Positions 27,169 through 46,498 of a stretch of DNA of 64,000 nucleotides are shown here, piece after piece. The notes under the pieces are model-generated. The model ran no database searches. It was not told where the DNA came from and saw only the letters and a program-made list of their open reading frames with translations. The stretch spans positions 610 to 64,609 of the forward strand of contig NVVJ01000011.1 of NCBI GenBank assembly GCA_002402175.1, written 5' to 3'. The position numbers and the translations under genes are program-made. Each line of letters opens with the position of its first letter. The first letter of the stretch is position 1. This stretch comes from SAR86 cluster bacterium. GTDB lineage: Bacteria > Pseudomonadota > Gammaproteobacteria > Pseudomonadales > Pseudohongiellaceae.

Positions 27169-27230
27169 CGATTTTATCCCCTCGGAATAAAGTTTAACTA
27201 TTTAAAATTCAGTAATTTTTCAGCGTTATT

Positions 27231-27273
27231 CTCAACTGTGACGCCACTATATCTATCGTCCACAAGTGGCGCA
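27231..27273 (-). promoter_or_regulatory. Cluster of CGCCAC/GTGGCG repeats and a weak -24/-12-like element upstream of the pilin gene
   Basis: Minus strand TTGCGCCAC-TT-GTGGAC-GATAGATATA-GTGGCG-TCACAGTTGAG. This gives the inverted repeat CGCCAC/GTGGCG and TGGCGT-N5-TTGAG, in which the conserved -12 GC is not kept. Confidence 0.3.
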
Positions 27274-27288
27274 ATATGTAGGTTTTTT

Positions 27289-28347: not shown

Positions 28348-29011
28348 CGTCACGTTTGATACCAAATTTTTTCAGAAAATAGTAGATGCTCTCTCGTTTT
28401 AGCCCAAGCCTCGCTGCACTTTGATACACGTTAAATCCCGTGTCTTTTAATACATGACGCACCAGCTTTTCCTCCGCTTCCTCACGTACGGCTTTCAATC
28501 CATCCGCCACTCTCGCATTGATCTGTAGGCGCGTTAGACCTTCGGTGTCAGATAGGGTTTTCTCATTCTCGAAAAACATCACCGCTCTTTGTACAGAGTT
28601 TAAAATAGCTTCGGAACGAGAAGGCTTGGACAAAAAATCAAATGCCCCCTCTTTAATGGCCGCCAGAGCAGAGCTTTCCTCATCCTGCCCGGTAAGCACG
28701 ACTATTTTTGCTGGGTGCAACTGTGCAATCACAGACTTGATAACCGCCAGTCCCTCGACAGTGGTGTGGGGCGACGGAGGCAAACCGAGATCAAGAATGA
28801 TAACTGCAATTCCAGAGTCGGATTTTAAAATGGCCTCTGCACTAAGTTTGCTATCTGCTTCTTGTACGTGATATCCCTTAATCTCCAAGACATTTCGAAG
28901 TATGTGCCGCAAAGCCGGATCATCTTCGACCAGCAGAATTTTCGCAATATTCTCGCTCTCAGCTTTCTCTGCATTATTGTCAGGAGAGTTATTATCAGAT
29001 TGTTTGTTCAA
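28340..29011 (-). CDS. Response regulator, REC plus Fis-type HTH, lacking an AAA+ sigma54-activation domain
   Basis: REC domain KILLVEDD, VIILDLGLPPSP, FDFLSKP. C-terminal HTH_8-like NVYQSAARLGLKRESIYYFLKKFGI. At 223 aa there is no room for an AAA+ module. Only a TTG start is available, at 29011. Confidence 0.8.
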   Translation of the reverse strand: MNKQSDNNSPDNNAEKAESENIAKILLVEDDPALRHILRNVLEIKGYHVQEADSKLSAEAILKSDSGIAVIILDLGLPPSPHTTVEGLAVIKSVIAQLHPAKIVVLTGQDEESSALAAIKEGAFDFLSKPSRSEAILNSVQRAVMFFENEKTLSDTEGLTRLQINARVADGLKAVREEAEEKLVRHVLKDTGFNVYQSAARLGLKRESIYYFLKKFGIKRDDG

Positions 29012-29058
29012 TTCTATGCCTTACGATTTCGAATGAGAAAGACAACAGGAGTATTAGA

Positions 29059-29802
29059 TTAGGGCAATTGACCGGCTGCAATCATTCTAGTGAACAATAT
29101 GCCCGGAGAAATCCATGTAACCAGGTCGTCAAACGTATCTTCGATATATGCGCTTTGTACAAAGTCATCGTCATTAGGTAAACGATAGCCATTAAGTGTT
29201 CTCTCTCCTGAGTTTTCTGTCTCATCTACATCGGCCCCGGTAAAATCTACCCAGTCGGCACCTAGAGACATAATCACCACGGGAACCGCATCGGCAATTA
29301 CAGTTCCGCAGGCGGCCGCGTCACAGACTCGAAAAGTCGGGGCCATTGCTGCTATTCCCACACCTCTAATACCATTAGAGGTGGTAAATGCATCACCGTT
29401 AGAATCGCTGACCGAATAACGATAAGCGCCCAGCCATTTATCCATTAGTAATCCATTAATATCGAGCGCACCACTGAGCCCCAGTGTTGCTGATGGAACA
29501 AGGCCATGTTCTTCCGTGCATGCGCCTCCACCTACAGGTACTTCGGCGCCGTTACTGGTTGGAGTTGCCGGGCATGGCAACCTGCCCGTAGCTTGAGCAT
29601 AGCCATAAAGGGCTTCAACAATATCATCAAGTTTTGCTTCAGCATTGCGGCGGTTGTTCATTTCCTGAGTCTGGCTCAGTGAAATTAGTAAACCACCCAA
29701 TAGTGTAGACACGATGACTAAAACAATAGCCATCTCAATAAGACTAAACCCTAAAGAAGATTTTGCACTTTTAATTTTATTTCTCCTTGTCGTCGTTAGC
29801 AT
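29059..29802 (-). CDS. Prepilin-type minor (pseudo)pilin
   Basis: SSLG/FSLIEMAIVLVIVSTLLGGLL cleavage-methylation motif. YAQATGRLPCPA motif. Four Cys residues. Confidence 0.8.
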   Translation of the reverse strand: MLTTTRRNKIKSAKSSLGFSLIEMAIVLVIVSTLLGGLLISLSQTQEMNNRRNAEAKLDDIVEALYGYAQATGRLPCPATPTSNGAEVPVGGGACTEEHGLVPSATLGLSGALDINGLLMDKWLGAYRYSVSDSNGDAFTTSNGIRGVGIAAMAPTFRVCDAAACGTVIADAVPVVIMSLGADWVDFTGADVDETENSGERTLNGYRLPNDDDFVQSAYIEDTFDDLVTWISPGILFTRMIAAGQLP

Positions 29803-30725
29803 CGCACACCAGCTTTACTAATACCGGGCACTCCAACATTAAGCGTATAGACAATATTGCAATTACTAAACGCTAACGTGGCACTGTCAGCTGTTACTTG
29901 CGTGTATAGGGTATTTAACACCCACGTATTCGCCCCAATCCACGCTGGCGCAGCACCCATTGCAGTGATAAATTCAGCTTGATCCAAGGGATAGATCCCA
30001 TTTAACACATGAAATACATTCAACTCTAGCTTCATGGCTTCTGCAACTCGTGCAGAAACTGGTGATAAGATCTCACTAGTTGTTATCGTCAAGACTCTGT
30101 CATTAAAATTTTCTGGGTCAAGTGCATCACTGCTTACATAGGTTGGGCCGGCGACATTATCAGCTTCAAGATAATTCGCACTGGTATTGTTCCCTCTAAG
30201 TTGCACTCCAGTAGCCCCGCCGGGAGCAATCAGAATAGCTGCTATCCCTCCTTGCCCATCAAGAGATAAATTACCGTTTGATGTTGTATTCAAAATTCCT
30301 GTTGGACTTCGCTTGAAATCGTCTGACAACGTATACCAGAATTGTTCATCAATGCCACTATTGAAGTTTGAAAATGAGAACACTGCCGCAGATGGAAGTA
30401 TTATCGAGACAGGAAGACGCCCAAGGGAATTACCTGGACATGGCGAATCTTCGATACCATCTCCATTGGTGTCGGGACAAATTAAACGCCCCGGGGCTCC
30501 ATCCGTAGCCGAGTAATAATCACCATGCAATACGGCGTAGGCTATTAGCGCATCCTTTGCGTCACGCATAGCCAACATAACATTGCTGTCGCGTTGTCGT
30601 GTCAGTATATTGTTATCGAATATCACAAGAATTGCACTGGTGCTGGCAAGAACAAAAACGATCATTAATACAATAAGTATGACGCCGCGCTGCCGAACTG
30701 CTGGCGCAGAAACAAGCCTAGTCAT
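29796..30725 (-). CDS. GspK/PilX-like pilin-related protein (no canonical G/F-x-x-x-E site)
   Basis: The N-terminus VRQRGVILIVLMIVFVLASTSAIL resembles the GspK QRGVAL... start. GRLICPD and LGRLP motifs are shared with the neighbouring pilins. Confidence 0.55.
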   Translation of the reverse strand: MTRLVSAPAVRQRGVILIVLMIVFVLASTSAILVIFDNNILTRQRDSNVMLAMRDAKDALIAYAVLHGDYYSATDGAPGRLICPDTNGDGIEDSPCPGNSLGRLPVSIILPSAAVFSFSNFNSGIDEQFWYTLSDDFKRSPTGILNTTSNGNLSLDGQGGIAAILIAPGGATGVQLRGNNTSANYLEADNVAGPTYVSSDALDPENFNDRVLTITTSEILSPVSARVAEAMKLELNVFHVLNGIYPLDQAEFITAMGAAPAWIGANTWVLNTLYTQVTADSATLAFSNCNIVYTLNVGVPGISKAGVRC

Positions 30726-31330
30726 TGTGTAATATCTCGAATTTCCTGTGCTTGTTCAATCAACACCTGAACGTCTTCTTCGCGAACTGGCAGTTCTTGC
30801 TCGCGAACAATCTCTGATTCATCTACAACGTCGGCTACAGCACGATATTGATAGGATTCATACAACTGACCTGTAGTCAGGTTTAGAACCTGACCTGGTT
30901 TTAAATGAAAGCTGACATTGGAATCAGGGTCATGAATTCGAAGCTGTCCTTTATTGAAAGGCGTTAACAACTGAATGTTTTCTGGTAAGTTGTCCTGATC
31001 ATATGACTGATTATTTATCCAAACGGTATAGCGGCCATCGCTGCGCAACATGGCACCCCCTACACTATAAATAATGTCTTCTAGCTCTCCATTGTCGAGC
31101 TCGGTAACATTTGGAAGCTGTGCTATGTCGGTTAGAATCTCAGTTACGGATTCTGGATGTAAAGAACCATTTCGCAAGCGGTCCAGTTCAGCTCGTAAAG
31201 CAGGTGTGCTAAACAAACGCTGTAACGATTGAGCACTGACAAAGCTCGGCCACAATAGTGCTAAGACCGCCGTTGTGATTGCAGTAATTGCCTGTATCTT
31301 ATGCCTGTTGTTATTCAAATACATAAGCAC
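30722..31330 (-). CDS. Secreted periplasmic protein in the PilP/MshK/GspC position
   Basis: 202 aa with signal peptide AVLALLWPSFVSA/Q. ATGA overlap with the next gene. No motif recognisable by eye. Confidence 0.4.
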   Translation of the reverse strand: MLMYLNNNRHKIQAITAITTAVLALLWPSFVSAQSLQRLFSTPALRAELDRLRNGSLHPESVTEILTDIAQLPNVTELDNGELEDIIYSVGGAMLRSDGRYTVWINNQSYDQDNLPENIQLLTPFNKGQLRIHDPDSNVSFHLKPGQVLNLTTGQLYESYQYRAVADVVDESEIVREQELPVREEDVQVLIEQAQEIRDITQ

Positions 31331-31339
31331 TCTTGCTCT

Positions 31340-31999
31340 CTATTCATCGTATCCAAACGCGTCTGGCCCAGTATTGGATTCTCGTCGTAATGTGTACCAG
31401 GTAAATTCACACGTAGCCACCTGGTGCTCCACAAATTCGAGTAAATTTCTGCCATCAAGCAAGGTAGCAACAATGGTGCATTCGTTGCTTACCATTAGCC
31501 TTCCTGTGTTTAGAAAATCAGCCAGGAAGCGAGTCAGATCTTCCTCGTGTAGAAGTGGCAAGCGGATCTGTACAATACTACTACGCAGAGAAATATCTTC
31601 GTCGGGGTAATCTATACCCTCTTCGTAAAGTAGCGGCTGACTATTTTGCTCTCTCACATCAACATCAATAGGAAACAATTGATATTTGTTACGTATATTT
31701 CGAATATCTTCAAGTAGGGAAACTCGGTCTTCATCTGCCATGATTTGATTAGCGGTCATAGTGTTAAAACGATCTATGTTTTCAACTATTATTCTTTCCG
31801 ATGACTCAATTTGTCGTATTTCCTGTGATATCACATCAAAGTCTGTAAGAATCCCGTTTTCGAGTCGCCGCATCTCTCCCTGATAATAGAACGCCCCCCA
31901 ATAAATAGCAGTCGATACAGTTATTGCAAAAAGCAGCAACAGTATCCACCACTTAAGCCATTGCAAATCTTCGCTTCTTTGACGTTGGTGTGAGGCCAT
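31340..31999 (-). CDS. Bitopic inner-membrane protein, PilO/GspM/MshJ-like
   Basis: 219 aa. Short cytoplasmic N-terminus, TM WWILLLLFAITVSTAIYWGAFYY, predicted coiled-coil, then a globular periplasmic domain. Confidence 0.45.
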   Translation of the reverse strand: MASHQRQRSEDLQWLKWWILLLLFAITVSTAIYWGAFYYQGEMRRLENGILTDFDVISQEIRQIESSERIIVENIDRFNTMTANQIMADEDRVSLLEDIRNIRNKYQLFPIDVDVREQNSQPLLYEEGIDYPDEDISLRSSIVQIRLPLLHEEDLTRFLADFLNTGRLMVSNECTIVATLLDGRNLLEFVEHQVATCEFTWYTLRRESNTGPDAFGYDE

Positions 32000-32001
32000 A
32001 A

Positions 32002-33534
32002 TCAGCTATCGAACCTCACATTCAATGAAAACTCCAGATCTAGTATTTCGTCACCAACAATGGTGTTCAATGATGCATTAGCGCCTGACTCTATAGGCAG
32101 TTTTATAGGCGTAACAGTTGCTCCCTCAATCAAATTTAGAGAATTTATAAAACTCTTTAACTCCGTGTCGGAGTTTTCAAAACTGCTACTGCCAACCTGA
32201 CTTCCGTTGAGTTCAATGTTCACTGATGTACTGTCAGTCAACAGCGCATCAGTAAGGCTTGAATCCACCTGGTCTGAGACAAGCTCCCAGGTAACAGAAG
32301 TCAGCGTGATTGCAGAATAACCCTGAATTGCCCTACTTATTGCAGCAAGCAGATCTGTGGGTTGTTGCATCTGACCCCGAATTAACTCGTAGTTGCTAAC
32401 TGCAAGTTCCATGGCTTCGGAAGGTATAGGGGTTTCAGGAAACTGCGCACGTAAGGCATCATATTGATCCCGCACCGGCAATAAGCTCTGGCTTAAGCCG
32501 AAGTAATTGTTCCTTCTTTCTAAGGCATCATTCAAAGCAGGGGCGCTTAACACCCCACTCAATACCATAAATAATACACAGCTCAATACGATGAGGTTGC
32601 GGGCTTGTTTAAGCTCTTTGAAACGAAGTGCCGCAGGTGATGCATATATGTTTCCAAATTTTCCTGTTCGAACCCCCCAGTCAAGACATAACAGTATCGC
32701 TGTAATTTCGTTCTGAGGACCCCCATATTGATCAATAGGCATTAAATCAATTGAGTTGTGATGCTCCACTCTACCAAATTGGCTCGTATCAGCATTGTCA
32801 TCAAATGCGTGGTCTTCAAGCACTGGAGTCACTACGTGTAAGTCCAATTGTTGAGCATTCTTTAATAGTCCAATTCGGTCTAAATATTCTTTAGATTGGA
32901 GTGAAGCAGTCATTATAACTCCCACGAGGTCTGAGTCATGACCGGAGGGCAGCGGTGTAAGCCGGCTAAAAATTAATTTGTCATTGGCGATTAACGACTG
33001 GCGTATCCCGTTTCTTTGCCAGTTGACCAGAAGAATTTCATCACTTGTAACTAGACCTAGCTCTTTCGCAACTTTACATATAGCAAACGCTGGGCTTGTA
33101 ATACTCTTTATTGATATTTCCTGTTCCAATAACAGGCTTACCCAGCCATCTATATTCTGGGACTGTGTGAGCGCGCTGAATAGAACTCTATCATCCCGCC
33201 TGCCAGATTCTTCTCTTCCTAACACTTTAGCTGAACAATATTCTATATTTCGAAAATGCTGATCCATCTTTCTTTCCAGGAAAGACTTACGATCAAAACT
33301 ATTTACATGCGCCACTTTTTCAACAATAAAATCCTCGGCGGGAGAGTCAACCACTACAGTCACAGCAGAAGGTTTGTTCTCGGCTAAATAGTGTTGAAAT
33401 TCCTCATGTCCAAACTCATCTTCTGAGAAAGTAGCTAGCTTCATCAAGCGAGAATTATCCAGGCCATAGATTGCCAAACCCTCAAAATTTATGAGAATAA
33501 TCCGGCGCTCTGAAGACTTAAAAAATCCGAACAT
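32002..33534 (-). CDS. PilM-PilN fusion-like (MshI/GspL-like) assembly protein
   Basis: 510 aa. About 315 aa cytoplasmic domain, one TM (LIVLSCVLFMVLSGVLSAPAL), and about 175 aa periplasmic domain. The architecture matches MshI/GspL. Confidence 0.5.
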   Translation of the reverse strand: MFGFFKSSERRIILINFEGLAIYGLDNSRLMKLATFSEDEFGHEEFQHYLAENKPSAVTVVVDSPAEDFIVEKVAHVNSFDRKSFLERKMDQHFRNIEYCSAKVLGREESGRRDDRVLFSALTQSQNIDGWVSLLLEQEISIKSITSPAFAICKVAKELGLVTSDEILLVNWQRNGIRQSLIANDKLIFSRLTPLPSGHDSDLVGVIMTASLQSKEYLDRIGLLKNAQQLDLHVVTPVLEDHAFDDNADTSQFGRVEHHNSIDLMPIDQYGGPQNEITAILLCLDWGVRTGKFGNIYASPAALRFKELKQARNLIVLSCVLFMVLSGVLSAPALNDALERRNNYFGLSQSLLPVRDQYDALRAQFPETPIPSEAMELAVSNYELIRGQMQQPTDLLAAISRAIQGYSAITLTSVTWELVSDQVDSSLTDALLTDSTSVNIELNGSQVGSSSFENSDTELKSFINSLNLIEGATVTPIKLPIESGANASLNTIVGDEILDLEFSLNVRFDS

Positions 33535-33542
33535 GCCTGCCC

Positions 33543-34748
33543 TTATAGCTGCATACTGCCAATTGAGTCATACACGGGACCCATTACCGAAACCATAACC
33601 CAGCCCAATATTCCACCCAGAAGAACGGTCATCGCAGGCTGTATAAGCGCCTGGACTTTTTCTATTGAGTCTTTGATATCTCGTTCATAGAAATAACTTA
33701 CATTCAGAAGTGCCTGGTCTAACTGACCTGTTGTTTCCCCCACTCGTATCATCCTTACCACTAACGGCGGGAACAACCCGGTATTGTGAAAACTGTCAGA
33801 CACGCCATTGCCATCCTGAATTTCTTCTCGAGCTTTTTTTAGGGCATATCTAATCGCCTCATTGCCCGACACTTTTTCAGTAATTTCAATGCAACGCAAA
33901 ACGGGAATTCCAGCCTTGTACATCATGGCAAACAGGTTAGCGAAACGAGCCAGAATTATCTTTTTAAGAACAGGACCAATTTGCCAGGCGCGCAGCTTGA
34001 ATGCATCTACCTGATATCTTATATCAACACTAACAGCCATGAGGACTCGAAGTATTATAAATAGCACTATTGGAATCAAGGTAAAGAGATACCAATAGTT
34101 AACAAAGAAATTGGAGGTAGCAATAAGTGCTTTCGTATGCGCAGGCAATTCCTGCCCTATGCCTTCAATAAAACTGACTAATTGTGGAACCAGATAAACC
34201 ATTAGGAAGCCAACAACCGCAAATACCACACCGCCAACGAATGCTGGAAATATTAATAATTTTTTTGTAGTGGATATTAATTCATCCTGCCACTTTATCA
34301 TTTCATTTAATGATAGAAACACATCCGGTAATTGACCGCTCTCTTCCCCCGCTGCGATTAAATTAACGAATAAATCATCGAATACTTTGGGGTGCTCTCC
34401 TAAGGCCTGAGACAAGGTTTTACCGGTTTCAATGCTGTCAATTATTTGAGCAATAATTCGACGAAACGCTGCCTGCTCAACACTGTCTCGTAGATCAACC
34501 AGGCCATCAATAATCGATACGCCAGAACGAGTTAGTTGCTCCATATGGAAGCAGAAATTTATCAGGTCTATTCGACGAATATTTCCAGCACCGCTCAATA
34601 TTGACTTGTCTTCAACAAATTTGCACTTAATGAGATCCATGCTCATATGGCTCAGGCGTATTTCCAGATCTGCCTCATTCGCTGCATCCAGCTTGCCGCT
34701 ATGGGACCGCCCCTGAGAATCTATAGCTTTGTAAGTAAATAATGCCAT
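33543..34748 (-). CDS. GspF/PilC/MshG-family inner-membrane platform protein
   Basis: 401 aa. The N-terminus MALFTYKAIDSQGRSHSGKL is typical of the family. Two T2SSF repeats and three TM segments. Confidence 0.9.
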   Translation of the reverse strand: MALFTYKAIDSQGRSHSGKLDAANEADLEIRLSHMSMDLIKCKFVEDKSILSGAGNIRRIDLINFCFHMEQLTRSGVSIIDGLVDLRDSVEQAAFRRIIAQIIDSIETGKTLSQALGEHPKVFDDLFVNLIAAGEESGQLPDVFLSLNEMIKWQDELISTTKKLLIFPAFVGGVVFAVVGFLMVYLVPQLVSFIEGIGQELPAHTKALIATSNFFVNYWYLFTLIPIVLFIILRVLMAVSVDIRYQVDAFKLRAWQIGPVLKKIILARFANLFAMMYKAGIPVLRCIEITEKVSGNEAIRYALKKAREEIQDGNGVSDSFHNTGLFPPLVVRMIRVGETTGQLDQALLNVSYFYERDIKDSIEKVQALIQPAMTVLLGGILGWVMVSVMGPVYDSIGSMQL

Positions 34749-34754
34749 CTTAGC

Positions 34755-36491
34755 TCACACACCAATTCGATCAGTAAGGTCCACCACTCGAGTAATCTCC
34801 TCAAGACTGGTAGTGCCATCAAGTACACGGCGACAGGCGTCGTCGGCCAAGGTACGAAAACCACCTTGTGCTGCCGCCTTTTGCAAAGCATGAGCAGGAG
34901 TACCTTCGGAAATAAGCCTTTGTAAGTCATCACCAATTTGAAGTATTTCTACAATTGCGGTTCTACCTTTGTAGCCCACATGATCACAATCAGGACAACC
35001 AACTGCACGATAAATTTGCGGCGCTTTATCCGTGTCGCTAATGCCCAATAGTTTTCCTTCCAGTTCATCGACATCATGTGATTCTTTACACTTGATACAT
35101 AATTTTCGTAGCAATCGCTGAGCAATAATTCCAATTAAGTTTGCAGATAAAATATCGGGTAGCACGCCAAGGTCTGATAACCGGGGAACGGACCCTACGG
35201 CAGAATTTGTATGAAGTGTAGAGAATACCTGGTGGCCAGTCATGGCTGCACGAAACGCCATTTCTGCAGTGATATCGTCTCTAATTTCTCCCACTAGAAT
35301 GACATCCGGATCTTGCCGCATCATAGATCGAATACCTTCAGCAAAACCCATTTTCGCGGCAGAATTAATCGATGTCTGCCGGATCATAGGCATCGGATAT
35401 TCAACGGGGTCTTCCATCGTCATGATATTGATTGCTTCCGTGTTTATATGGCTAAGCACAGAATAAAGCGTGGTTGTTTTACCGCTGCCGGTAGGACCGG
35501 TTACCAGAATTACTCCCTCTGGCTTAGCCAACATCATTTTGATGGCATATAAATTTTCTTCACTTAGTCCCAAAGAGTCCAGAGGTACAATACCAGTTCT
35601 TCGATCTAGAATTCTCAGGACAACATTCTCGCCATAAGAAGTAGGTTGCGCTGCAACCCTGAAATCAATCTTCCTTCCTATCAGGGTTAGCGAAATACGC
35701 CCGTCCTGGGGCGCCCTGGATTCGGCTATATTCATATTGCTGATTACTTTCAACCTGACAACCATTGCCGGCCAATAACTTTTATGAATACTTCTGACCT
35801 GCCGCAACACACCGTCTATTCGATAACGAATCCGAAGAAAAGCTTCTTCCGGCTCGAAGTGAATATCAGATGCTCCCTGCTGCACTGCATCCGCTAACAG
35901 GGCATTAATCAGGCGGACCATCGGATGACTGTATTGATCGCCTTCTGTTTGCAGGCTATCAAGATCGACTTCACCTGTTTCAATTTCCTGAAGAATTCCA
36001 TCTATTGAAAGATCGAATCCGTAAACCTCTTCGATTATTGTGGTTATATCAATTTCGCTGCCAAGCACAGGGGTGATTTTCAGAGTGTTGTCATGCAGTG
36101 CCCGAATTTGATCCAGAGCAACAATGTTATAAGTGTCTGGCATTGCCACACTCAATTCATTCAGATGAGCACTGTAAGACAGGGGCAAAATTTTATAGCG
36201 CCGCGCCATATCCTGTGGAACCATCTTGAGCGCTTCAGCGCCAATAACCGCGCCGGTCAAATCAACTGTAGAAAATCCGGTATTTTCGGACAAGGCATCA
36301 CGAATAATTGAATCGGTTACGAATCCTAGCTGGATAAGCACCGCACCAATTCTCAAGCCCATTGATTCCTGCTCGCGTAACGCAATCATCAATTGATCTC
36401 TGGTGATAATGCCTTTGTCGATGAGTGCATCACCAAGTTGCTTCTTGCCAGTCCTTGGTTTTTTCGCAGCAGTTTGAGTTTGTTCTGTCAT
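34755..36491 (-). CDS. GspE/MshE-family assembly ATPase with N-terminal MshEN-type domain
   Basis: Walker A GPTGSGKTT, Walker B DPDVILVGEIRD, His box GHQVFSTLHTNSA, tetracysteine CIKCK...CPDCDHVGYKGR. N-terminal motifs QLGDALIDKGIITRDQLMIALREQ and RIGAVLIQLGFVTDSIIRDALSEN. Confidence 0.9.
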   Translation of the reverse strand: MTEQTQTAAKKPRTGKKQLGDALIDKGIITRDQLMIALREQESMGLRIGAVLIQLGFVTDSIIRDALSENTGFSTVDLTGAVIGAEALKMVPQDMARRYKILPLSYSAHLNELSVAMPDTYNIVALDQIRALHDNTLKITPVLGSEIDITTIIEEVYGFDLSIDGILQEIETGEVDLDSLQTEGDQYSHPMVRLINALLADAVQQGASDIHFEPEEAFLRIRYRIDGVLRQVRSIHKSYWPAMVVRLKVISNMNIAESRAPQDGRISLTLIGRKIDFRVAAQPTSYGENVVLRILDRRTGIVPLDSLGLSEENLYAIKMMLAKPEGVILVTGPTGSGKTTTLYSVLSHINTEAINIMTMEDPVEYPMPMIRQTSINSAAKMGFAEGIRSMMRQDPDVILVGEIRDDITAEMAFRAAMTGHQVFSTLHTNSAVGSVPRLSDLGVLPDILSANLIGIIAQRLLRKLCIKCKESHDVDELEGKLLGISDTDKAPQIYRAVGCPDCDHVGYKGRTAIVEILQIGDDLQRLISEGTPAHALQKAAAQGGFRTLADDACRRVLDGTTSLEEITRVVDLTDRIGV

Positions 36492-38383
36492 TCTGCTTGC
36501 ATCCTACTTGTGTTTGTCAGGCGATTGCGTACAAGTTGCACATCAAAACCCGCAGGATGAACTGCAGAAAACTCCAGGGCCTGTTGGTAATAGGTTTGTG
36601 CCGAGCGCACCTGATTCAAATGCTCAAGGCTTACGGCCAGGTTAAAAGCATAGTCAGGGTTTACCTGCCCGGCCTCCAATGCGTTCGTTTTTGCGAGTTG
36701 TAATGCATTAAAATAGGCCTGCTGCGCCTCAGGCCATCGTTGTTGCAAAGCCAAAAAATTTCCCAGGGCATAAGCCAGAGGTGCTACAGATGGATGCTCC
36801 GCAACCAATCGCTTCAACTCTGCCTCCTGCTGCTGAGGCGTCCCGGACGGCATGATTTTCGACAAACCGACGCGAGCGACAGGGTCACTGGGGTCACGTG
36901 CTATTAATCTTGAATAGAGCTCTATTGCCTGAGATGTTTCATTGTTTATTACCGCAATAGTGGCTAGGCCAAGAAGTGCGTTTCGATGAAGAGGAGAGTT
37001 CACTAATACTTGCTGGTATAGACTTTTTGCCTGTTCCAGAGAACCCGCCTGATAGGCGCTATACGCCTGAGATGCCAATGGATTAATGCTGCTGGTTGTT
37101 ACCCGATGAGAGAAGCTGATTAGATTAACCGGCTCAGCCAAATCAGTCGGCATACTCAGCTCAGTCTGACCTACAGAGGATATCGCTAAGTTTGCATCGC
37201 CTAATGAAGTATCCGCAGGCACGGTCGAATTTTCTTCGATGGTGTTATCAGGCTCAACCGATATTGACTCATTCAGCTCCGCTACTGTAACCACATTAAC
37301 CGGAATGTTTGAATCCTCAATAGGCGGCTCATTTACTACAGCGATATCTTCAGTGTTATCGCGCTCAATTACTCCAGAGATGGAATTTTCAATTTGCACA
37401 CTATCAATTTGTACGTCTTCAGTAGTTGCGACAAAGGTGTCGAGGCCAGGTTCTTCGATTTCAGAATTCACTACCGCAGAATCAATAACATTAGTATCGC
37501 TAACCGATGACGTAGAAAAATCACGCGCAGCATAAGAATTCAAAGGAATGACTATTCCACTAGTGTTGTTTAACTCCGTATAGAGATAAATTCCAAAACC
37601 TAATACTACAATTACAACAGCAGTACCGGCGACTTGAAATTTCTGCTTTGGTCCAAAGGGCATCTTTTTCGCCGCAAATACACTTTTAGCTGAACGCCTG
37701 TCCCGGTCACTAGAGCCATGGGCGGCCTGAGTTTTTAGAGCATCAGCATCTAAAGGGCGACCTGGCGTAGCCGCCTGATTTTTCAGTTGCCTACTTGCGA
37801 TCTCAGCATTTTTCTGTGCTACTGCGGCAGTAACTGTGTCTCGCAGTTCAAGTTCACTCGGCAATGCTTCATGAACTTGTGCATTGTCATCGGTCGGTTC
37901 TTCGGATTCGGCTACAGGCTCATCAAATTGGCCCTTTGTGCTTTCAAACGAATAAGGCAATGTAATAACATTTACTGTCTCAGCTTCTGTCTTAGTCTTT
38001 ACCTCAGCACTACTATCTGGTGCATCCTTTTCGCTAATCTCTTCCTTCACCTGTGCTGTAATGTTTGTATCGGGTAGCTCAGGTTCAGAATAAGCTCCTA
38101 CTTTTTCTGCATTCAAAACAGAGGGGCTATCTTGCACGTCTTCGACGGCATCATCTGCCTCAAATTCAATTGTGGTGTCTAGTTTGATTTTCGAATCGAT
38201 GGGGGAGTCTTCAACAGCTAAAATATCGAGCGTCGGTGACACTGTTGTTGGGGCATCAGCTACGGCTAGGAGTTCTTCCGTTTGCGTCACTTCGGCCTCA
38301 ACCGTCATATTGAGCTTACTGTCTTGCTCGGCCTTTTTCTTTGCTTGCTCGGCCTTGCGCAACGCGTCCATTAGTAAACTCAT
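36488..38383 (-). CDS. Bitopic TPR protein with GspB-like N-terminus (MshN position)
   Basis: N-terminus MSLLMDALRKAEQAKKKAEQ. Long acidic cytoplasmic linker. TM AVVIVVLGFGIYLY. C-terminal TPR repeats (AYQAGSLEQAKSLYQQVL..., ALGNFLALQQRWPEAQQAYFNAL...). Confidence 0.65.
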   Translation of the reverse strand: MSLLMDALRKAEQAKKKAEQDSKLNMTVEAEVTQTEELLAVADAPTTVSPTLDILAVEDSPIDSKIKLDTTIEFEADDAVEDVQDSPSVLNAEKVGAYSEPELPDTNITAQVKEEISEKDAPDSSAEVKTKTEAETVNVITLPYSFESTKGQFDEPVAESEEPTDDNAQVHEALPSELELRDTVTAAVAQKNAEIASRQLKNQAATPGRPLDADALKTQAAHGSSDRDRRSAKSVFAAKKMPFGPKQKFQVAGTAVVIVVLGFGIYLYTELNNTSGIVIPLNSYAARDFSTSSVSDTNVIDSAVVNSEIEEPGLDTFVATTEDVQIDSVQIENSISGVIERDNTEDIAVVNEPPIEDSNIPVNVVTVAELNESISVEPDNTIEENSTVPADTSLGDANLAISSVGQTELSMPTDLAEPVNLISFSHRVTTSSINPLASQAYSAYQAGSLEQAKSLYQQVLVNSPLHRNALLGLATIAVINNETSQAIELYSRLIARDPSDPVARVGLSKIMPSGTPQQQEAELKRLVAEHPSVAPLAYALGNFLALQQRWPEAQQAYFNALQLAKTNALEAGQVNPDYAFNLAVSLEHLNQVRSAQTYYQQALEFSAVHPAGFDVQLVRNRLTNTSRMQAE

Positions 38384-38427
38384 GGGCTTGTCTCTGTATT
38401 CTGATTTTTACACACGATGTATATGAA

Positions 38428-40044
38428 TTAAAATGTAAGAAGCGATTTTTGAGCAGCAGTATTACCCGCGCTAACCGGCAAGTATTCTCTATATTCTTGA
38501 AAATCTGCATTAATACTGGCTCGCTTTATCACTGTCGGTCGAATAAATATTATTAACTCTGTTTTAACTGTATTTCTGTCTTTGATACCAAACAAACCAC
38601 CAATAATGGGCAGTCGGTTCAAACCTGGAAGACCGGTGTTACTATAATCTATAGTATCCTGCATCAAGCCGCCCAAGATAGCGATCTGGCCGCTATCAAC
38701 TTTAAGAATAGATTCAATCTCTCTAATCTGGATTTCCGGAATCGAGCTGATGACACCGGCGTCTGCAAGTGCTGGATTCGGATCATCGACGAAACGAATG
38801 ATTCGTGAAATTGTTGGTCGAACATTCAGCGTAACCTGATCGTTCTGACTTATCTGTGGCGTAACCGCCATGGTAAATCCTACTGGAACACTATGTACTT
38901 CACTGGTGTATACTGTAGGAGTTCCTGGCCCCGCTGCACTGGCCGCTGTTCCCGCCTCTACTTCTATAGTGAAATAAATTCGGTTATCTACAACCCGCAA
39001 CATAGCAGTCTGATTATTAAGCGCCATCAACTTGGGACTCGACAATACTTGTGTATCGCCAAACTGTGACAGCAGCTTTATGGTTGCGCTGATCGCGTCA
39101 GGCCCCGCGCTCTTGTCTATTGTCAATACATTTGTCGGAGTATCATCTAATTCAAGCCCAAGCAAATCCTGACTAAAGCTGACTTGTCCATTATCCCTTG
39201 CTAGCAGAGACCAATCGACACCAGATCTAAAACGATCATTCAGGTTTACCTCTACTATTGTCGCTTCAATCAACACTTGAAACAGCGCTCGAGTGCGAAC
39301 TGATTCAATAAAATCGTATATTTCGCGATGCTGGCGACTATTAGCACGTACCGTCACTAACCCACTTTCTGGACTGACTATAACCGAACGAGTACCACCT
39401 TCATCATCTATCGATTCTCCCAGAATAGCAGAGAGATTTTCCTGCAGCGTTTGCCAGAAATCATTGCTAGAAGCCTGGGTTAGAACACTAGTCGAAACAT
39501 TCGTATCGTCCTCACCTACGCCAGTTGAAACACTTACCACTGACTGTGCACTTCTAGAAACATTAACATAGTCAATTCGATAACTACGCAGTCCAGGCAA
39601 GTCAGGCTCCACAATTAAGTAATCTGCGCGCTCAAAATTCCAGCGGATGTCTATTTGCCGAGAAATACGATCGAGTATTTGAGGTAAAGTCTGATCAATT
39701 ACATTGAGGCTAACTGCTCCTCTCACATCAGTGTGCACATCGACATTTATACCTGCATCTCGCGCCATAGCAAATAGCAACTCCGACACTTGAACATCCT
39801 GAACCACCACCGAATACAACTCCAGTTGCGGCACAATCTGCGGCGCAGCCACTACTGGTAATGGTCTGACAATATCAGGAATACCAACTGACGAAATCGG
39901 TTCCGCAACTGACAAATGCCGACCCGAATCTGGTCGATTCTGAATTTGTTCTTTTTCCCCATTAGTCAGGTTATTACACGCCGTTAGTAGCGGCAATCCA
40001 GTAATAAGCAAAACAATTTTCCAATAGTTTTTCGACATACCCAT
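38428..40044 (-). CDS. MshL-type secretin lipoprotein
   Basis: Lipobox LLTAC. N-domain block YSVVVQDVQVSELLFAMARDAGINVDVH...LPQILDRISRQIDIRW. C-terminal secretin core LPIIGGLFG...TELIIFIRPTVI. Confidence 0.85.
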   Translation of the reverse strand: MGMSKNYWKIVLLITGLPLLTACNNLTNGEKEQIQNRPDSGRHLSVAEPISSVGIPDIVRPLPVVAAPQIVPQLELYSVVVQDVQVSELLFAMARDAGINVDVHTDVRGAVSLNVIDQTLPQILDRISRQIDIRWNFERADYLIVEPDLPGLRSYRIDYVNVSRSAQSVVSVSTGVGEDDTNVSTSVLTQASSNDFWQTLQENLSAILGESIDDEGGTRSVIVSPESGLVTVRANSRQHREIYDFIESVRTRALFQVLIEATIVEVNLNDRFRSGVDWSLLARDNGQVSFSQDLLGLELDDTPTNVLTIDKSAGPDAISATIKLLSQFGDTQVLSSPKLMALNNQTAMLRVVDNRIYFTIEVEAGTAASAAGPGTPTVYTSEVHSVPVGFTMAVTPQISQNDQVTLNVRPTISRIIRFVDDPNPALADAGVISSIPEIQIREIESILKVDSGQIAILGGLMQDTIDYSNTGLPGLNRLPIIGGLFGIKDRNTVKTELIIFIRPTVIKRASINADFQEYREYLPVSAGNTAAQKSLLTF

Positions 40045-40045
40045 T

Positions 40046-41767
40046 TTACTCCAATGTCAGGGCGGCAATTATGTTGTTTGCATTGCACTCAACACTGCTC
40101 ATATTTTGAACAAATGGCTTGTAACCATAAATAGGCGCGGGCAACTTATCGATAAATTCCTGCGCCAGGCTTAAACCATTGAAATTTCCATATTTGATGG
40201 TCCAGTACCCATTACTACCATCCGTAGACATGCACACATAGGATTCAGAAATTAGGTCTGCTTGTTCCAGCACTCTCAGAAAGGATTCTGCAAACTCTAG
40301 ATCGCCGGTCTCACCTGAGACAAACTGAACCGTATAGCTATCTCTATTTGTCGCTTTTAGCCAGTCTATAGAAGCGATCACTCGCTCCTGAACATGATTC
40401 CGCTCAATAGAAGTCGGCCTTTTTTCGCCTTGATCCGCTTCGCTATAGGTATTTAATTCCAGATTACTAAGCTGCTCATTTGTTACAACAGCGCCTTCGA
40501 TGAGTTCAACTTGATCAATGCTTACATAAATTGTGTTTTTGTCGTTAGTGTCAGCGGCGCCACTGTCTACCTCTGCAAGCCTGCGATCGACTATTTCACT
40601 TTTCTCTTCATTAAGAGTTGAAGCGTCCTCTATGACTTGTGGTGCAGATTTATTTTCGAAGGAACCCGAAGTAGATTCAATTTTCTCTGAAGTATTCGAA
40701 GAGAGCTCGGTAGTAATATTGCCCGCAAGGAACTCCTCCGGCAGATTGCCTAAGGTATTCACAGCTGCAAAGTTGTTTGGCCCAGGCTCAACCGACGCCT
40801 GATATCGCTCATCAATAACATCGGATTCCAACCACATTAGTAACGTAAACGCCATGAGGGCCACTACTACGCCGGCGCTTAACATGCGAAATGGAGATAG
40901 AAGGTTATGGAAAATAGGAGATATACAGTCGCTGTCCTGAATCGCCGCATAAACATGCCGCCAACCAATCATCGGTGCTGTCCCAGAGTTTAGCTCGGTA
41001 AATTCCAGTACATTGCCTGCATACGCTGCGAGTAATGCTTTATCTACCAGTATATTTATACGCCGAGTTAGCCCTCCTGATGCTTTGGCAAGCAACCATT
41101 CCGCCCCTGGAGTTAGTAATTGTGGGCACGGACATCCCGCCGCCCCGAGGCGAAAACGTACATATTCAGAAACCTGAGTAGTCGTCAGAGGATTCAGATG
41201 AAAACTGTGAGTAATCCGCTCTCGAAGCTGCCTAATGTGTTTTACGCTAAGGTTTTTATCCAGCTCTGGCTGACCAAATAAAATTATTTGCATCAACTTG
41301 TCACGATGAGTTTCCAGATTACTGAAAAGACGAATCTCTTCCAATGTGTCAACTGGCATACCCTGAGCTTCTTCAATAATTACCAGTACTCTTCGGTTCG
41401 CTCCATGTTGTTTTAACAGGTAGTTTTGCAACTGCTGCATTACTAACAACTTTGAAGTATCTCTACGTACAGGTAATTTAAGCTCAAATGCTACTGCGTA
41501 TAAAATTTCATCAGGGCTCAAATTTGGATTAGCCAAATACACCACTTCTGTGGAATCTGGTAAGCGTTCTTCCAGCATGCGGCATAACATTGTTTTCCCG
41601 CTGCCAACTTCACCAACAACCTTCAGTATGCCTTCGCCGCTTTCAATGGCGTACAGCATTGCTTCCAGTACTACTCCCCTACCCTGATGCCCGCCCGGAA
41701 AAAACAGCGATGTATCGGGTGTGATACGAAAAGGATGTCGCTCAAGCGAAAAGTAGTCCAGATACAT
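40046..41767 (-). CDS. ExeA/MshM-family AAA+ ATPase fused to a TM segment and a periplasmic SPOR-like domain
   Basis: Walker A GEVGSGKT, Walker B VLVIIEEAQ, TM AGVVVALMAFTLLMWL. The C-terminus YTVQFVSGE...GYWTIKYGNFNGLSLAQEFIDKL resembles a SPOR fold pattern. Confidence 0.75.
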   Translation of the reverse strand: MYLDYFSLERHPFRITPDTSLFFPGGHQGRGVVLEAMLYAIESGEGILKVVGEVGSGKTMLCRMLEERLPDSTEVVYLANPNLSPDEILYAVAFELKLPVRRDTSKLLVMQQLQNYLLKQHGANRRVLVIIEEAQGMPVDTLEEIRLFSNLETHRDKLMQIILFGQPELDKNLSVKHIRQLRERITHSFHLNPLTTTQVSEYVRFRLGAAGCPCPQLLTPGAEWLLAKASGGLTRRINILVDKALLAAYAGNVLEFTELNSGTAPMIGWRHVYAAIQDSDCISPIFHNLLSPFRMLSAGVVVALMAFTLLMWLESDVIDERYQASVEPGPNNFAAVNTLGNLPEEFLAGNITTELSSNTSEKIESTSGSFENKSAPQVIEDASTLNEEKSEIVDRRLAEVDSGAADTNDKNTIYVSIDQVELIEGAVVTNEQLSNLELNTYSEADQGEKRPTSIERNHVQERVIASIDWLKATNRDSYTVQFVSGETGDLEFAESFLRVLEQADLISESYVCMSTDGSNGYWTIKYGNFNGLSLAQEFIDKLPAPIYGYKPFVQNMSSVECNANNIIAALTLE

Positions 41768-43732: not shown

Positions 43733-46225
43733 CTACATTGTTCGTATTTGTGTGTAATCAGTATATCCAAGGAGTATTTTCTCTATACCGTCTTGCTTGC
43801 GAGTACGCATACCATCCTCTATAGCCGCCATATGTATTTCTGATGCAGGAGCACGCCTTAAAATCATTTTTTTGATATCTGACGAGCTCATCAGTAATTC
43901 ATGAACTCCCATTCTTCCGCGATAGCCAGCATCCAAGCAATCAAGGCAACCTGGCGCTTTATATAAGGTGAATTCTCCTTTCTGAGTAAAGTCTTTCTCC
44001 CAATCTTCAAGTTGTTTCATAACATCTTCGTCACGAGGATCTGATCGTGATCCATCGGGTATTAACTCGCGGCAATATTCTACAGCCAGAAACTCCAACT
44101 CTCGTTGCTCTGGTTTGTAAGGCTTTTTACACGATGTACACAGTGTTTTTGTCAGCCGTTGAGATAACACACCTATCATAGAATCAGCAAAATTAAATGG
44201 ATCCATTCCCATATCAAGCAAGCGAATGACACTCTCAGCTGCGCTATTGGTATGCAAAGTCGACAGTACCAAATGGCCGGTAAGAGACGCTTCAATTGCT
44301 GTCGAAGCCGTTTCTTTATCTCGCATTTCGCCAATCATTATGATGTCGGGGTCAGCACGAAGAAAAGCACGCATGGCACCGGAAAATGTCATTCCAACCT
44401 TTTCATTAACTTCTACCTGGCGCAACCCTGGCTGGGTAATTTCCACTGGATCTTCAGCTGTCCAGATTTTGCGCTCAGTTGCATTCAGGTAATTTAAAAC
44501 TGAATGTAAGGTGGTACTTTTACCCGAACCGGTAGGGCCACATACTAAAAAGAGCCCGTGAGGTCGGGATATTCCATCTAAAAGCTTATCCAGGTTTTTA
44601 CTACTCAGGCCAATAGCATTCACTGGCATACATTTTCCACCGCTCAGGATACGAATAACTACATCTTCGATACCGCCGGCGGTGGGAATAGTGGCGACAC
44701 GCAATTCGATATCAATGGGTGAAAAATGCCGGAAATTAATCTTTCCGTCCTGAGGCTTGTACTTATTCGAAATATCCAGATGGGACATAACTTTTATCCT
44801 GGATACAAATACCGCTCTATATTTAGCTGGAAACTTATAATACGTTGAAAGTACGCCATCTTTACGAAATCGAACTATCAATTTCTGCTTACCCTGGCCC
44901 GGCTCTATGTGTATGTCTGACACTTTCTGTCGATACGCATCCTCAATAATTTTATTGACGATTCGCACAATAACATTGTCCGTTACCTGGGACGTTTCAG
45001 CTGCTGAGAAAATACTGGAATCGTAGGAATCATCTTCCTCGGCGTCCATATCCTCTTCGTCGTAGTCCGCTATGGTTGATTCAATATCTTCAGAAGAATA
45101 ATAAAACTGCAGGGCCCAGTTAATGTCTTCCGGCGAAGCCATTACCGGTTCTACGTACTTATTAATGTTAAAACTGAGTGCGTCGGTGACCTGCCAGTCC
45201 ATCGGGTTCTCAATGGCTACTACGATTTTCCCTTCGTAAACATATAAGGGCACAACTTTATGCTTGAACGCTATAGCTGCTGTTAATACTCGAATTACTT
45301 CAGGGTCAACAATAAACTCTCTGAGATTTACGAAAGGAATACCTAATTTCTTGGCAAGGCTTTGCTGAATTTCGTCTTTATCAATAACACCGCGGCTAAC
45401 CAGTATTTCGCCAAGCGCACTTTTCCGTTTCTTCTTTTGCTCTTTTAAAGCTTCCTGAAGCTGAGCTTCTGTAACCAAATTTTCAGATAGAAGAATTTCA
45501 CCAAGCTTCAAATTAGGCATATTCTTCTGACGAGAAAGAGCATTTTCCAATTCGTCCGCATCAACAATTTTTTGATTAACCAGGTAATCACCGATTAATC
45601 GAGATCGTTCGTTCTGTTGATCTTTTAACGCTGTCTCCAACGACTCTTTAGAAATTTGTTTTTCCTGCACCAGCAAATCACCAATTTGCCCGCCAATGAT
45701 ATGGCTTTCAATGGCGACGTTGGATACAAAAAGATGGGTGCAGTAGCGCCATTTTCGACCTACTTTAGTTTGTTCGTAAAAGTGAATGCCGTTTTTATCT
45801 GCTCTTGAACCGAAAGTTTTTCCGCTAATTTCCGTACGGTCCTTGAAAAATACTTCAAAGGACCTAGAGGCTGTATCGACATTAATTCCCTTACGCTTTT
45901 CTTCAGTGCCGTGGTTTTCTATCATTAGCTGATAGGGCTTTTCAAGACGCATAAGTTTTATAGCGCCCATTCCGATATCAATGGGCACCGTGGCACGCGG
46001 CTCTAAAATAGTAATGATTTCTGTCGCCGCACAAAACTGTAATAATTTACCCTTGGTGCGAGTATTGTTATTAAGCTCAATGGTGACTGCTGTATTGGTG
46101 TATTCGGGGCCTTCGTCCACTTCTGAGAAAGGAGGTGGCTGGAGATCAATCTTCATAGACACTAGTGCATCTGACGTGCCCTGGTTTTCAGGAGTCTCAG
46201 TTGATATAGCAGAGTCGGTTTGCAT
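43733..46225 (-). CDS. Orphan 830-aa GspE-family ATPase with an extended N-terminus (unknown domain plus four MshEN-like motifs)
   Basis: Walker A GPTGSGKST, Walker B DPDIIMIGEMRD, His box GHLVLSTLHTNSA, CTSCKK...CLDCLDAGYRGR. Residues ~180-293 hold four tandem 24-mer motifs. Residues 1-179 are unassigned. Confidence 0.85.
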   Translation of the reverse strand: MQTDSAISTETPENQGTSDALVSMKIDLQPPPFSEVDEGPEYTNTAVTIELNNNTRTKGKLLQFCAATEIITILEPRATVPIDIGMGAIKLMRLEKPYQLMIENHGTEEKRKGINVDTASRSFEVFFKDRTEISGKTFGSRADKNGIHFYEQTKVGRKWRYCTHLFVSNVAIESHIIGGQIGDLLVQEKQISKESLETALKDQQNERSRLIGDYLVNQKIVDADELENALSRQKNMPNLKLGEILLSENLVTEAQLQEALKEQKKKRKSALGEILVSRGVIDKDEIQQSLAKKLGIPFVNLREFIVDPEVIRVLTAAIAFKHKVVPLYVYEGKIVVAIENPMDWQVTDALSFNINKYVEPVMASPEDINWALQFYYSSEDIESTIADYDEEDMDAEEDDSYDSSIFSAAETSQVTDNVIVRIVNKIIEDAYRQKVSDIHIEPGQGKQKLIVRFRKDGVLSTYYKFPAKYRAVFVSRIKVMSHLDISNKYKPQDGKINFRHFSPIDIELRVATIPTAGGIEDVVIRILSGGKCMPVNAIGLSSKNLDKLLDGISRPHGLFLVCGPTGSGKSTTLHSVLNYLNATERKIWTAEDPVEITQPGLRQVEVNEKVGMTFSGAMRAFLRADPDIIMIGEMRDKETASTAIEASLTGHLVLSTLHTNSAAESVIRLLDMGMDPFNFADSMIGVLSQRLTKTLCTSCKKPYKPEQRELEFLAVEYCRELIPDGSRSDPRDEDVMKQLEDWEKDFTQKGEFTLYKAPGCLDCLDAGYRGRMGVHELLMSSSDIKKMILRRAPASEIHMAAIEDGMRTRKQDGIEKILLGYTDYTQIRTM

Positions 46226-46498
46226 GCCTTTGCCTCAGTTCGTGCTTATCACAGTAATAGCCAATAATAAATATAGCATTCAACATCTTGAGACAGTGTA
46301 TATGTGCCGTGTCGAATTGACTACACAGCCTAATGCTAGGTGAGTATCTCAGGACAAATCGCTGATTACTTTAGCAGGAATTGGAATTCTGTACAATTTA
46401 CCCAATCAGCAGGGCTTAAGCATACAGCCATGCTGTATAGATACTGAGACGTCCTTAGCAAGAAATTGAATTTCCTTTCCTTTCTATTACATTACATT

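Follow-up and report, generated by a model that had tools for sequence, protein, structure and literature searches.

Why would a bacterium encode a full-length secretion-type ATPase that has no platform gene beside it? The question arises for an 830-amino-acid protein of a SAR86 cluster bacterium (family Pseudohongiellaceae), whose gene has an ATG start and lies on the reverse strand of a 64,000-nucleotide stretch of contig NVVJ01000011.1 (positions 610 to 64,609; assembly GCA_002402175.1). We call this whole stretch the window and the protein the target. A locus for mannose-sensitive hemagglutinin (MSH)-type type IV pili lies nearby. A preliminary description of the window, made from its DNA letters, had suggested that the target is an alternative or regulatory motor for the neighbouring machine, or else a cyclic di-GMP (c-di-GMP) receptor that works elsewhere. 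The first suggestion has gained comparative support, as the presence and the integrity of the gene track MSH-type pili across a genus; the second is still a live, though less probable, alternative. We lean modestly towards the view that the target is an accessory, sensor-gated motor or motor-regulator of MSH-type pili.

An orphan ATPase of the PilB clade

The target matches Pfam T2SSE (PF00437) over residues 415-827 with 382.7 bits, against a gathering score of 24.9, so it belongs to this ATPase superfamily. The preliminary description had reported a full-length ATPase with intact motifs, and all of these are present in the 830-residue frame: Walker A (GPTGSGKST, residues 563-571), the Asp box (EDPVE), Walker B (DPDIIMIGEMRD), the His box (LVLSTLHTNSA, residues 652-662), and the four cysteines of the zinc motif (C696, C699, C760, and C763). 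The catalytic motifs are identical or nearly identical to those of PilB and MshE from the same genome. Judged by these motifs, the target is a catalytically intact PilB-clade ATPase of the hexameric type. Its best sequence match in the PDB is PilF from Thermus (6F8L, E = 2.6e-125), followed by the structures of PilB from Myxococcus and Geobacter. The target nevertheless scores below the NCBIfam equivalog cut-offs for PilB (TIGR02538; 528.1 vs. 675.65 bits), for TfpB (NF053534; 416.3 vs. 850 bits), and for GspE. Because a start of the form MQ/MP-x-(D/E)-(S/T)-A is kept across the family, M1 is probably the true start. In an AlphaFold (AF2) model of the entire protein, the predicted TM-score (pTM) was 0.38 and the relative arrangement of the domains is not interpretable.

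Two other features of the ATPase region are recorded here. The two cysteine pairs (residues 696-763, nucleotides 43937-44140) are about 60 residues apart, and the Pfam alignment leaves about 48 extra residues in this region; the enlarged insert is conserved across the family.

The genome (3.86 Mb, 91.5% complete) encodes seven GspE/PilB-type ATPases and two PilT-like ATPases, along with four platform genes and four secretins. Four of the seven large ATPases adjoin a platform gene: these are in pilBCD (contig C36), the type II secretion system (T2SS; contig C89), a second MSH-like locus (contig C60), and the MSH-type locus of the window. The other three are orphans, namely the target, a 769-amino-acid protein with a GAF domain (contig C83), and a 599-amino-acid protein (contig C19). 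The target had been described as an orphan about 2 kb from the filament locus, and this holds: 1,966 bp and two unrelated genes separate it from the mshM end of that locus, and there is no platform gene within 8 kb of the target (the pilB-pilC-pilD cluster of this genome is on C36).

A phylogeny had been proposed as a check. Ours, which covers 28 ATPases of four genomes, puts the target next to PilB but in a different clade: the proteins of the target's type (with an N-terminal DUF6982-type domain, see below) and the GAF-fused orphan group together with 100% support. This clade is a weakly supported sister of the PilB clade (SH-aLRT 81), and MshE and GspE are placed elsewhere. The MshE proteins that are encoded within MSH loci form their own clades, with 100% support. 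The target is not among them and is not in the msh operon, so it is not an ortholog of MshE. The core of the target is 47% identical to that of the GAF-fused orphan and 31-36% identical to the other ATPases of the genome. It seems that the target's clade swaps its N-terminal sensor domains.

The GAF-fused orphan (genome G000, C83:22278-24587) is PilB-like, with a 31-bit match to GAF at its N-terminus. Like the target, it is an orphan with an N-terminal sensor, but the sensor is a different one and there are no MshEN_N modules. Because this protein is mostly full-length in relatives that lack MSH pili, it probably serves some system other than MSH.

Retention and decay of the target with MSH-type pili

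We examined a uniform sample of 201 Pseudohongiellaceae genomes, in which we distinguished the window-type MSH platform (Msh1) from the C60-type platform (Msh2). In genus g1, the target is present in all 21 genomes that have an ortholog of the Msh1 platform. No lesion was seen in 20 of these copies (two are cut by contig ends), and one is frameshifted. If only Msh2 is present (8 genomes), then the target is intact in three and absent from five. Among the 54 genomes of g1 with neither system, the target is absent from 43, broken in seven, and free of lesions in four, and the N-terminal domain of one of these four has strongly diverged. Each of the seven broken copies has a different lesion (stops, frameshifts, or, in one case, a remnant).

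The frameshifted copy, which is the only damaged target among the genomes with MSH, is from a complete one-contig genome (L088, G549:C1:202300-205600). It has a single frameshift near residue 675, which could be either a real lesion or an assembly indel.

The same pattern is seen at individual loci. Among the 36 Pseudohongiellaceae loci that we fetched, the target is intact wherever mshM and mshL follow downstream. Where the MSH locus is gone from the syntenic site, the target has two in-frame stops (L030), a frameshift (L048), or two frameshifts (L049), or is reduced to a 225-residue remnant (L050); it is still intact in L023 and L032. Whole-genome searches of those MSH-less genomes did not find any ortholog of the MSH platform, while their MSH-containing relatives have one with 67-76% identity. 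PilB, GspE, the GAF-fused orphan, and the 600-amino-acid orphan are mostly full-length frames in those MSH-less genomes. The genes that flank the decayed loci are intact, and so, in most loci, are the genes for the pyrroloquinoline quinone (PQQ) protein and the dihydrodipicolinate synthase (DHDPS) that lie between the target and the former MSH site. Because the lesions are point lesions, and because the flanking and intervening genes survive, the co-loss does not look like simple co-deletion, and it is what relaxed selection after the loss of MSH would produce.

On a tree of eight neighbouring housekeeping genes, there are 4-5 independent MSH-loss contrasts. The target decays in the same direction in 3-4 of these and in the opposite direction in none. 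Since the target is kept in all 21 genomes that have Msh1 and in 3 of the 8 that have Msh2 alone, and since the target is adjacent to the Msh1-type locus, the comparison favours Msh1 over Msh2 as the putative partner.

Two tandem MshEN_N-type modules

The MshEN domain of MshE from Vibrio cholerae is a c-di-GMP receptor, and MshE itself is the extension ATPase of the MSHA pilus (Wang et al. 2016, PMC5013675). The published motif is RLGxxLVxxG... in its strict form and [RKPN]hGxxhhxx[GAS]hh....h...h..[QNKRYWST] in its relaxed form, with a 5-residue spacer between motifs. In the target, four consecutive MshEN-like 24-mers had been listed at residues ~180-293, and we found them exactly as quoted. 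They start at residues 180, 210, 240, and 270 (nucleotides 45347-45688), which is an exact 30-residue spacing, and the spacers are 6 residues instead of the canonical 5. The observation that the glycine at position 10 is kept only in the fourth copy was also borne out (K, K, N, and G in order). Position 1 is Q, L, K, and A in order, as against R in the published motif, and position 11 is Q in the first copy. With no constraint on positions 1, 10, and 11, the core of the MshEN pattern fits all four 24-mers. Loosened in this way, the pattern matches 0.062 times per shuffled protein.

We also submitted each pair of 24-mers separately to NCBIfam NF053729, which describes the c-di-GMP module and has a curated cut-off of 38 bits. 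The first pair (residues 180-233) scored 52.8 bits and the second pair (residues 240-292/293) scored 59.1 bits; for comparison, the MshE of the window's MSH locus scored 65.1 bits. The target therefore has two tandem MshEN_N-type modules, and the GSPII C-subdomain follows the second of these only. The module is of a four-helix type, and its additional copy lies ahead of the normal GSPII/N1 domain. The remark in the preliminary description that this is twice the usual number of repeats is correct relative to MshE, but tandem GSPII domains are known in PilF from Thermus.

None of the 42 full-length homologues that we collected varies at G3, L6, or Q24 (which is K24 in motif 4), and all of them have L, or else I/V, at positions 17 and 21. 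Across the homologues, the first module has K at position 10 and either Q or L at position 1. More remote members of the family (such as L070) have the canonical R...G...Q in motif 4. Because these remote members keep the canonical motif, the target's module is, on this sequence comparison, ancestrally a genuine MshEN unit. At least one of the target's modules is likely to bind c-di-GMP.

Tandem Sm/SH3-like barrels at the N-terminus

The preliminary description could not recognise residues 1-179, but most of this region can now be assigned. An AF2 model of the region, built on 35 homologues, has two five-strand barrels (pLDDT 79.9, pTM 0.78), with lobe 1 at about residues 45-101 and lobe 2 at about residues 121-177. 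The invariant residues are a PxPP motif ahead of lobe 1 and GKTxGSRxDKNGxH in lobe 2. When compared to known structures with Foldseek, a single lobe matches Hfq (TMt 0.59-0.69, mostly with a root-mean-square deviation of 1.4-2.1 Å). Both lobes together give a weak match to the tandem Tudor domain of 53BP1 (E = 8e-4, TM-score about 0.3).

A link to DUF6982 (PF22478), an uncharacterised Pfam family, comes from remote homologues. A phmmer search with residues 24-180 against 1.8 billion representatives found 28 proteins, most of which are from the same family or are fragments. The remotest of these matches (E = 7e-5 to 9e-4) pass the Pfam threshold for DUF6982. The target's own domain does not match DUF6982 at E values up to 5, the barrels of close relatives score 16-21 bits (the cut-off is 24.5), and those of remoter ATPases of the same family score 24.5-33.9 bits. 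The DUF6982 profile spans both barrels (positions 5-129 of 134). Among 35 family members, the sub-threshold Pfam matches were to DUF6982 in 9, to LSM in 20, and to Hfq in 8. In 400 gammaproteobacterial genomes, DUF6982 has six matches, in six genomes, and all six are at the N-terminus of frames of 802-838 amino acids with the same architecture. Based on the structural model and these matches, we predict that the N-terminus of the target is a pair of tandem Sm/SH3-like barrels and a remote member of DUF6982. None of the papers that we searched mentions DUF6982.

Two other assignments were considered and rejected. The region had been said to lack a PilZ signature, and we agree: residues 1-179 contain neither RxxxR nor D/NxSxxG, there is no Pfam match to PilZ, and PilZ is not among the listed Foldseek matches. 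Membership in Hfq or LSM was rejected as well, as it is the fold of one lobe alone that resembles Hfq, and the sequence matches are below threshold and cover the Sm1 strands only.

A clade that has lost the His box

In the sister genus g329, two genomes with MSH have an intact target, and four MSH-less genomes have a full open reading frame (ORF) without the His box. At these His-box-less loci (L043, L044, L045, and L012, from genomes that include G401, G402, and G410), the histidine of the His box and the glutamate of the Asp box are lost. STLHTNSA is replaced by AGLAVESA, AGLSAETA, or AGMSADSA, while the barrels and every core residue of MshEN are kept. We found this form only in genomes that lack both MSH-type systems. 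This clade is a probable natural pseudo-ATPase.

The domains have diverged at different rates. The T2SSE score is about 298 bits in the His-box-less clade, vs. about 380 bits otherwise, and identity to the window's ATPase domain falls from 85% to 52% (65-68% within the clade). In contrast, the barrels of this clade are 55% identical to the window's, vs. 54% in the MSH-containing sister group, and they are 80-85% identical within the clade. In lineages with MSH, conservation within the protein is highest in the ATPase core (85-93% identity) and lowest in the barrels (54-81%), and wherever MSH is found, the catalytic motifs show strict conservation. Because the barrels and the MshEN core stay conserved while the ATPase degenerates, the sensor half of the protein seems to have retained a function for which neither MSH pili nor ATP hydrolysis is required.

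Weighing a role in MSH-type pili

We propose that the target works with MSH-type type IV pili, most likely those whose locus, equipped with an MshE of its own, lies 2 kb away. The hexamer of the target would either attach to the MSH platform, meaning MshG and the cytoplasmic ring (for which a 510-amino-acid protein is the candidate), or act as a partner of MshE. Its engagement may be set by c-di-GMP on one or both of the MshEN_N modules, and the Sm-like barrels may read a second input. We infer the physical coupling to MshG or MshE, the binding of c-di-GMP, and the direction of action (extension versus regulation).

Several observations weigh against this proposal. A sign test on the independent contrasts gives p = 0.125-0.25, as there are too few pairs for significance, and a naive Fisher test (p = 1.4e-5) is overstated because the genomes are related. 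Four MSH-less genomes of g1 keep a lesion-free target and one complete genome with MSH has a frameshifted copy. Other genera of the Pseudohongiellaceae carry Msh1, Msh2, or both but no target, so the MSH machine can evidently do without it, and the target would be a lineage-specific accessory rather than a core part. In the class-wide sample, an MshL-type secretin was found in three of the six genomes that carry a DUF6982-type ATPase, as compared to a base rate of 146-173 of 400 (37-43%), so we rejected a generalisation of the MSH link to the whole class: this sample shows no signal outside the Pseudohongiellaceae. Msh1 and Msh2 largely co-vary, so presence by itself does not tell which of them is the partner. 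A common surface-attachment lifestyle, rather than physical coupling, could also lie behind the co-loss. As for c-di-GMP, none of the four 24-mers pass the relaxed published pattern; the failures are at position 1 (Q, L, and A), at position 10 (K, K, and N), and at position 11 (Q, in the first copy). In the GSPII-A domain of Thermus PilF, the wild-type serine at position 1 of motif II and the wild-type residues other than glutamine at position 24 prevent the binding of c-di-GMP, and binding was restored only after these positions were changed to arginine and glutamine (PMC12002112). Motif 4 of the target has alanine at position 1 and lysine at position 24, which are the same two positions.

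If the shared lifestyle is the explanation, then the target might be a pilus-independent signalling ATPase that responds to c-di-GMP or another ligand and affects, for instance, exopolysaccharide or matrix output (Myxococcus PilB is reported to act on this output; PMC5544727). We consider this to be a distinctly less probable account than a role in MSH pili. It would fit with the target's lack of a conserved operon partner, with the gene's presence outside the family in genomes with no detected MshL-type secretin (G275 and G240), with the four intact copies in MSH-less genomes, and with the conservation of the barrels in the His-box-less clade, which suggests that the sensor half is MSH-independent. 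But it does not account for retention in every genome of the genus with Msh1, for the breakage of 7 of the 11 copies in MSH-less genomes, for the persistence of PilB and the other orphan ATPases in the MSH-less genomes that we examined, or for catalytic motifs that do not vary wherever MSH is present. A second motor for another machine, either the type IVa pilus (PilB/PilC) or the T2SS, is improbable: PilB and PilC, and GspE and GspF, persist in nearly all of the MSH-less genomes in which the target is broken, degenerate, or gone, and the target is below the cut-offs for PilB and for TfpB. The placement of its clade beside PilB, its best NCBIfam and PDB matches (PilB and PilF), and the precedent of TfpB in Acinetobacter baylyi (PMC8213720) speak for this idea, and we disfavour it because the other two machines persist where the target decays.

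Another idea that we think has just as little chance of being correct is that the target is mainly a non-motor regulator. It would act by titrating c-di-GMP, or by assembling into hexamers that include MshE or compete with it, and ATP hydrolysis would be secondary. In support of this idea, the ORF, the barrels, and all of the MshEN core residues have outlasted the His box in a whole clade, and PilB2 from Clostridium binds c-di-GMP with no change in its ATPase rate (reviewed in PMC11656802). Yet in all genomes with MSH, no part of the protein is better conserved than the ATPase core, which argues that catalysis matters there. It is also rather unlikely, in our view, that the tandem barrels are a sensor or adaptor (for a nucleotide, a small RNA, or a protein) that acts independently of both ATP hydrolysis and the pilus. 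We continue to prefer an accessory, sensor-gated role in MSH-type pili.

Comparison with characterised motors

Like MshE from V. cholerae (PMC5013675), the target has a GSPII/MshEN domain followed by a T2SSE ATPase, it has a 53-residue helical module with two motifs that is matched by NF053729, and it is associated, in our data, with an MSH-type pilus system. Unlike MshE, it is encoded outside of the pilus locus, which has its own 578-amino-acid MshE, and its ATPase core falls in a clade beside PilB. It also differs from MshE by its extra MshEN_N module, its 155 residues of tandem barrels, its 6-residue spacers, and its deviant residues at positions 1 and 10 of the motif.

PilF from Thermus thermophilus has three tandem GSPII domains, and only some of these units bind c-di-GMP (PMC11731258, PMC12002112). 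The target likewise has several MshEN-type units ahead of a PilB-type ATPase, and by analogy, it may well be that only some of its units bind c-di-GMP. However, PilF repeats whole GSPII domains (the N- and C-subdomains), while the target duplicates only the helical bundle of the N-subdomain. Also, PilF is the motor of its own machine and does not have Sm-like barrels.

In A. baylyi, two extension motors, PilB and TfpB, act on one pilus (PMC8213720), and this pair is a precedent for the accessory role that we propose. TfpB resembles the target in being a distinct, extra PilB-family ATPase that is encoded away from the platform gene, for a pilus that already has a motor. But the target is not an ortholog of TfpB (416 vs. 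850 bits), and TfpB serves a type IVa pilus and has neither DUF6982 nor a doubled MshEN_N.

Gene neighbourhood and upstream region

The features of the target and of the neighbouring locus are listed in Table 1. The conservation of the gene neighbourhood had been put forward as a check, and we compared it across lineages. Within the Pseudohongiellaceae, the site of the target is fixed: the gene order is the ribosomal/rpoA/rplQ block, an aminotransferase, (EamA), the target, (the PQQ protein), a DHDPS-like gene, a glutathione S-transferase, mshM, and mshL. In a Chromatiaceae/Tenderia-like group, the target lies between globin/FNR and polysaccharide deacetylase genes, and in a third group, the neighbours are different again. 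No operon partner of the target is conserved across these three lineage contexts.

Table 1. Features of the target and of the neighbouring MSH-type pilus locus, with positions in the window
Feature	Target residues	Window position	Strand	Evidence
Orphan PilB/GspE-type ATPase (P0001), 830 aa		43733..46225	-	Pfam T2SSE and MshEN matches; best NCBIfam match is PilB TIGR02538
Acidic leader, poorly conserved	1-23	46157..46225	-	AF2 pLDDT < 50
Predicted tandem Sm/SH3-like beta-barrel domain, divergent DUF6982	24-179	45689..46156	-	AF2, Foldseek, and phmmer
First MshEN_N-type module (53/54 residues; 24-mers 1 and 2), without its own GSPII C-subdomain	180-233	45527..45688	-	NF053729; AF2 pLDDT 44-55
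Second MshEN_N-type module (24-mers 3 and 4), runs into the GSPII C-subdomain	240-293	45347..45508	-	NF053729; pLDDT 74-81
GSPII/MshEN C-subdomain	294-380	45086..45346	-	Pfam PF05157, 69.5 bits
N2 domain and ATPase core	415-827	43745..44983	-	Walker A, Asp box, Walker B, His box, and tetracysteine zinc motif
Conserved promoter-like element TTGTAC, 17 nt, TGC-TAAAGT (extended -10 type)		46368..46396	-	About 140 nt upstream of the ATG
MSH-type pilus locus, putative partner		26497..41767	-	Gene content; co-retention and co-decay with the target
Platform MshG		33543-34748	-	In the MSH-type locus
MshE, 578 aa		34755-36491	-	In the MSH-type locus
Secretin		38428-40044	-	In the MSH-type locus
MshM		40046-41767	-	In the MSH-type locus

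The promoter-like element upstream of the target was identified by aligning 15 upstream regions from the Pseudohongiellaceae; the support is from conservation only, as a scan with the consensus did not flag it. Because this element is conserved in the family, the data are consistent with the target being a stand-alone transcription unit. We did not find a sigma-28 (FliA) site upstream of the target in any of 47 loci; instead there is this sigma-70-like element with an extended -10. The spacer of the element is also conserved, and the window's version contains AATTG-N10-CAATT, which may be an operator that overlaps the promoter. Between the stop codon of the aminotransferase gene and the promoter-like element, there is a perfect palindrome (46422-46438, ATACAGC-CAT-GCTGTAT) that is the sole exact match in the window and is not followed by a run of T. 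An operator and a weak terminator hairpin are both possible readings of it.

Two other loci in this genome encode related ATPases. The orphan GspE-type ATPase of 599 amino acids (G000, C19:34387-36186) is beside a run of large uncharacterised ORFs, and we found orthologs of about 600 amino acids in every Pseudohongiellaceae genome that we examined, irrespective of MSH status. The second MSH-like locus (G000, C60:1501-20599) has a platform gene, several pilins, and a 582-amino-acid ATPase whose MshEN motif is canonical, and an ORF of 3,624 amino acids follows it. Across the family, this locus and the MSH locus of the window are largely present or absent together.

Implications

The target is of a known kind, in that it is a PilB/MshE-family ATPase of the c-di-GMP-regulated type. 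Its architecture, with DUF6982 barrels, an extra MshEN_N module, GSPII, and the ATPase, is uncharacterised. What is new here is the link to MSH within the Pseudohongiellaceae, the clade that joins the target to the GAF-fused orphan, and the lineage without the His box.

If the barrels do act independently, then the target would be a two-input integrator of c-di-GMP and a second signal, and the His-box-less clade would be a natural pseudo-ATPase that keeps only sensing or scaffolding. In Synechocystis, Hfq and PilB1 form a partnership. If the target's barrels bind RNA, then the target would be a fused counterpart of this partnership.

Research on type IV pili has yet to explain why bacteria carry several PilB-type motors (reviewed in PMC11656802). 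The unstudied family of the target occurs widely among uncultured Gammaproteobacteria from the sea and from sediments. The family also offers two natural experiments: a duplicated MshEN_N that deviates at the positions that are relevant in PilF, and a clade that has the sensors but not the catalytic histidine. The pattern of co-retention gives the target a concrete and testable partner system, which is the MSH-type pilus with its own MshEN-bearing MshE.

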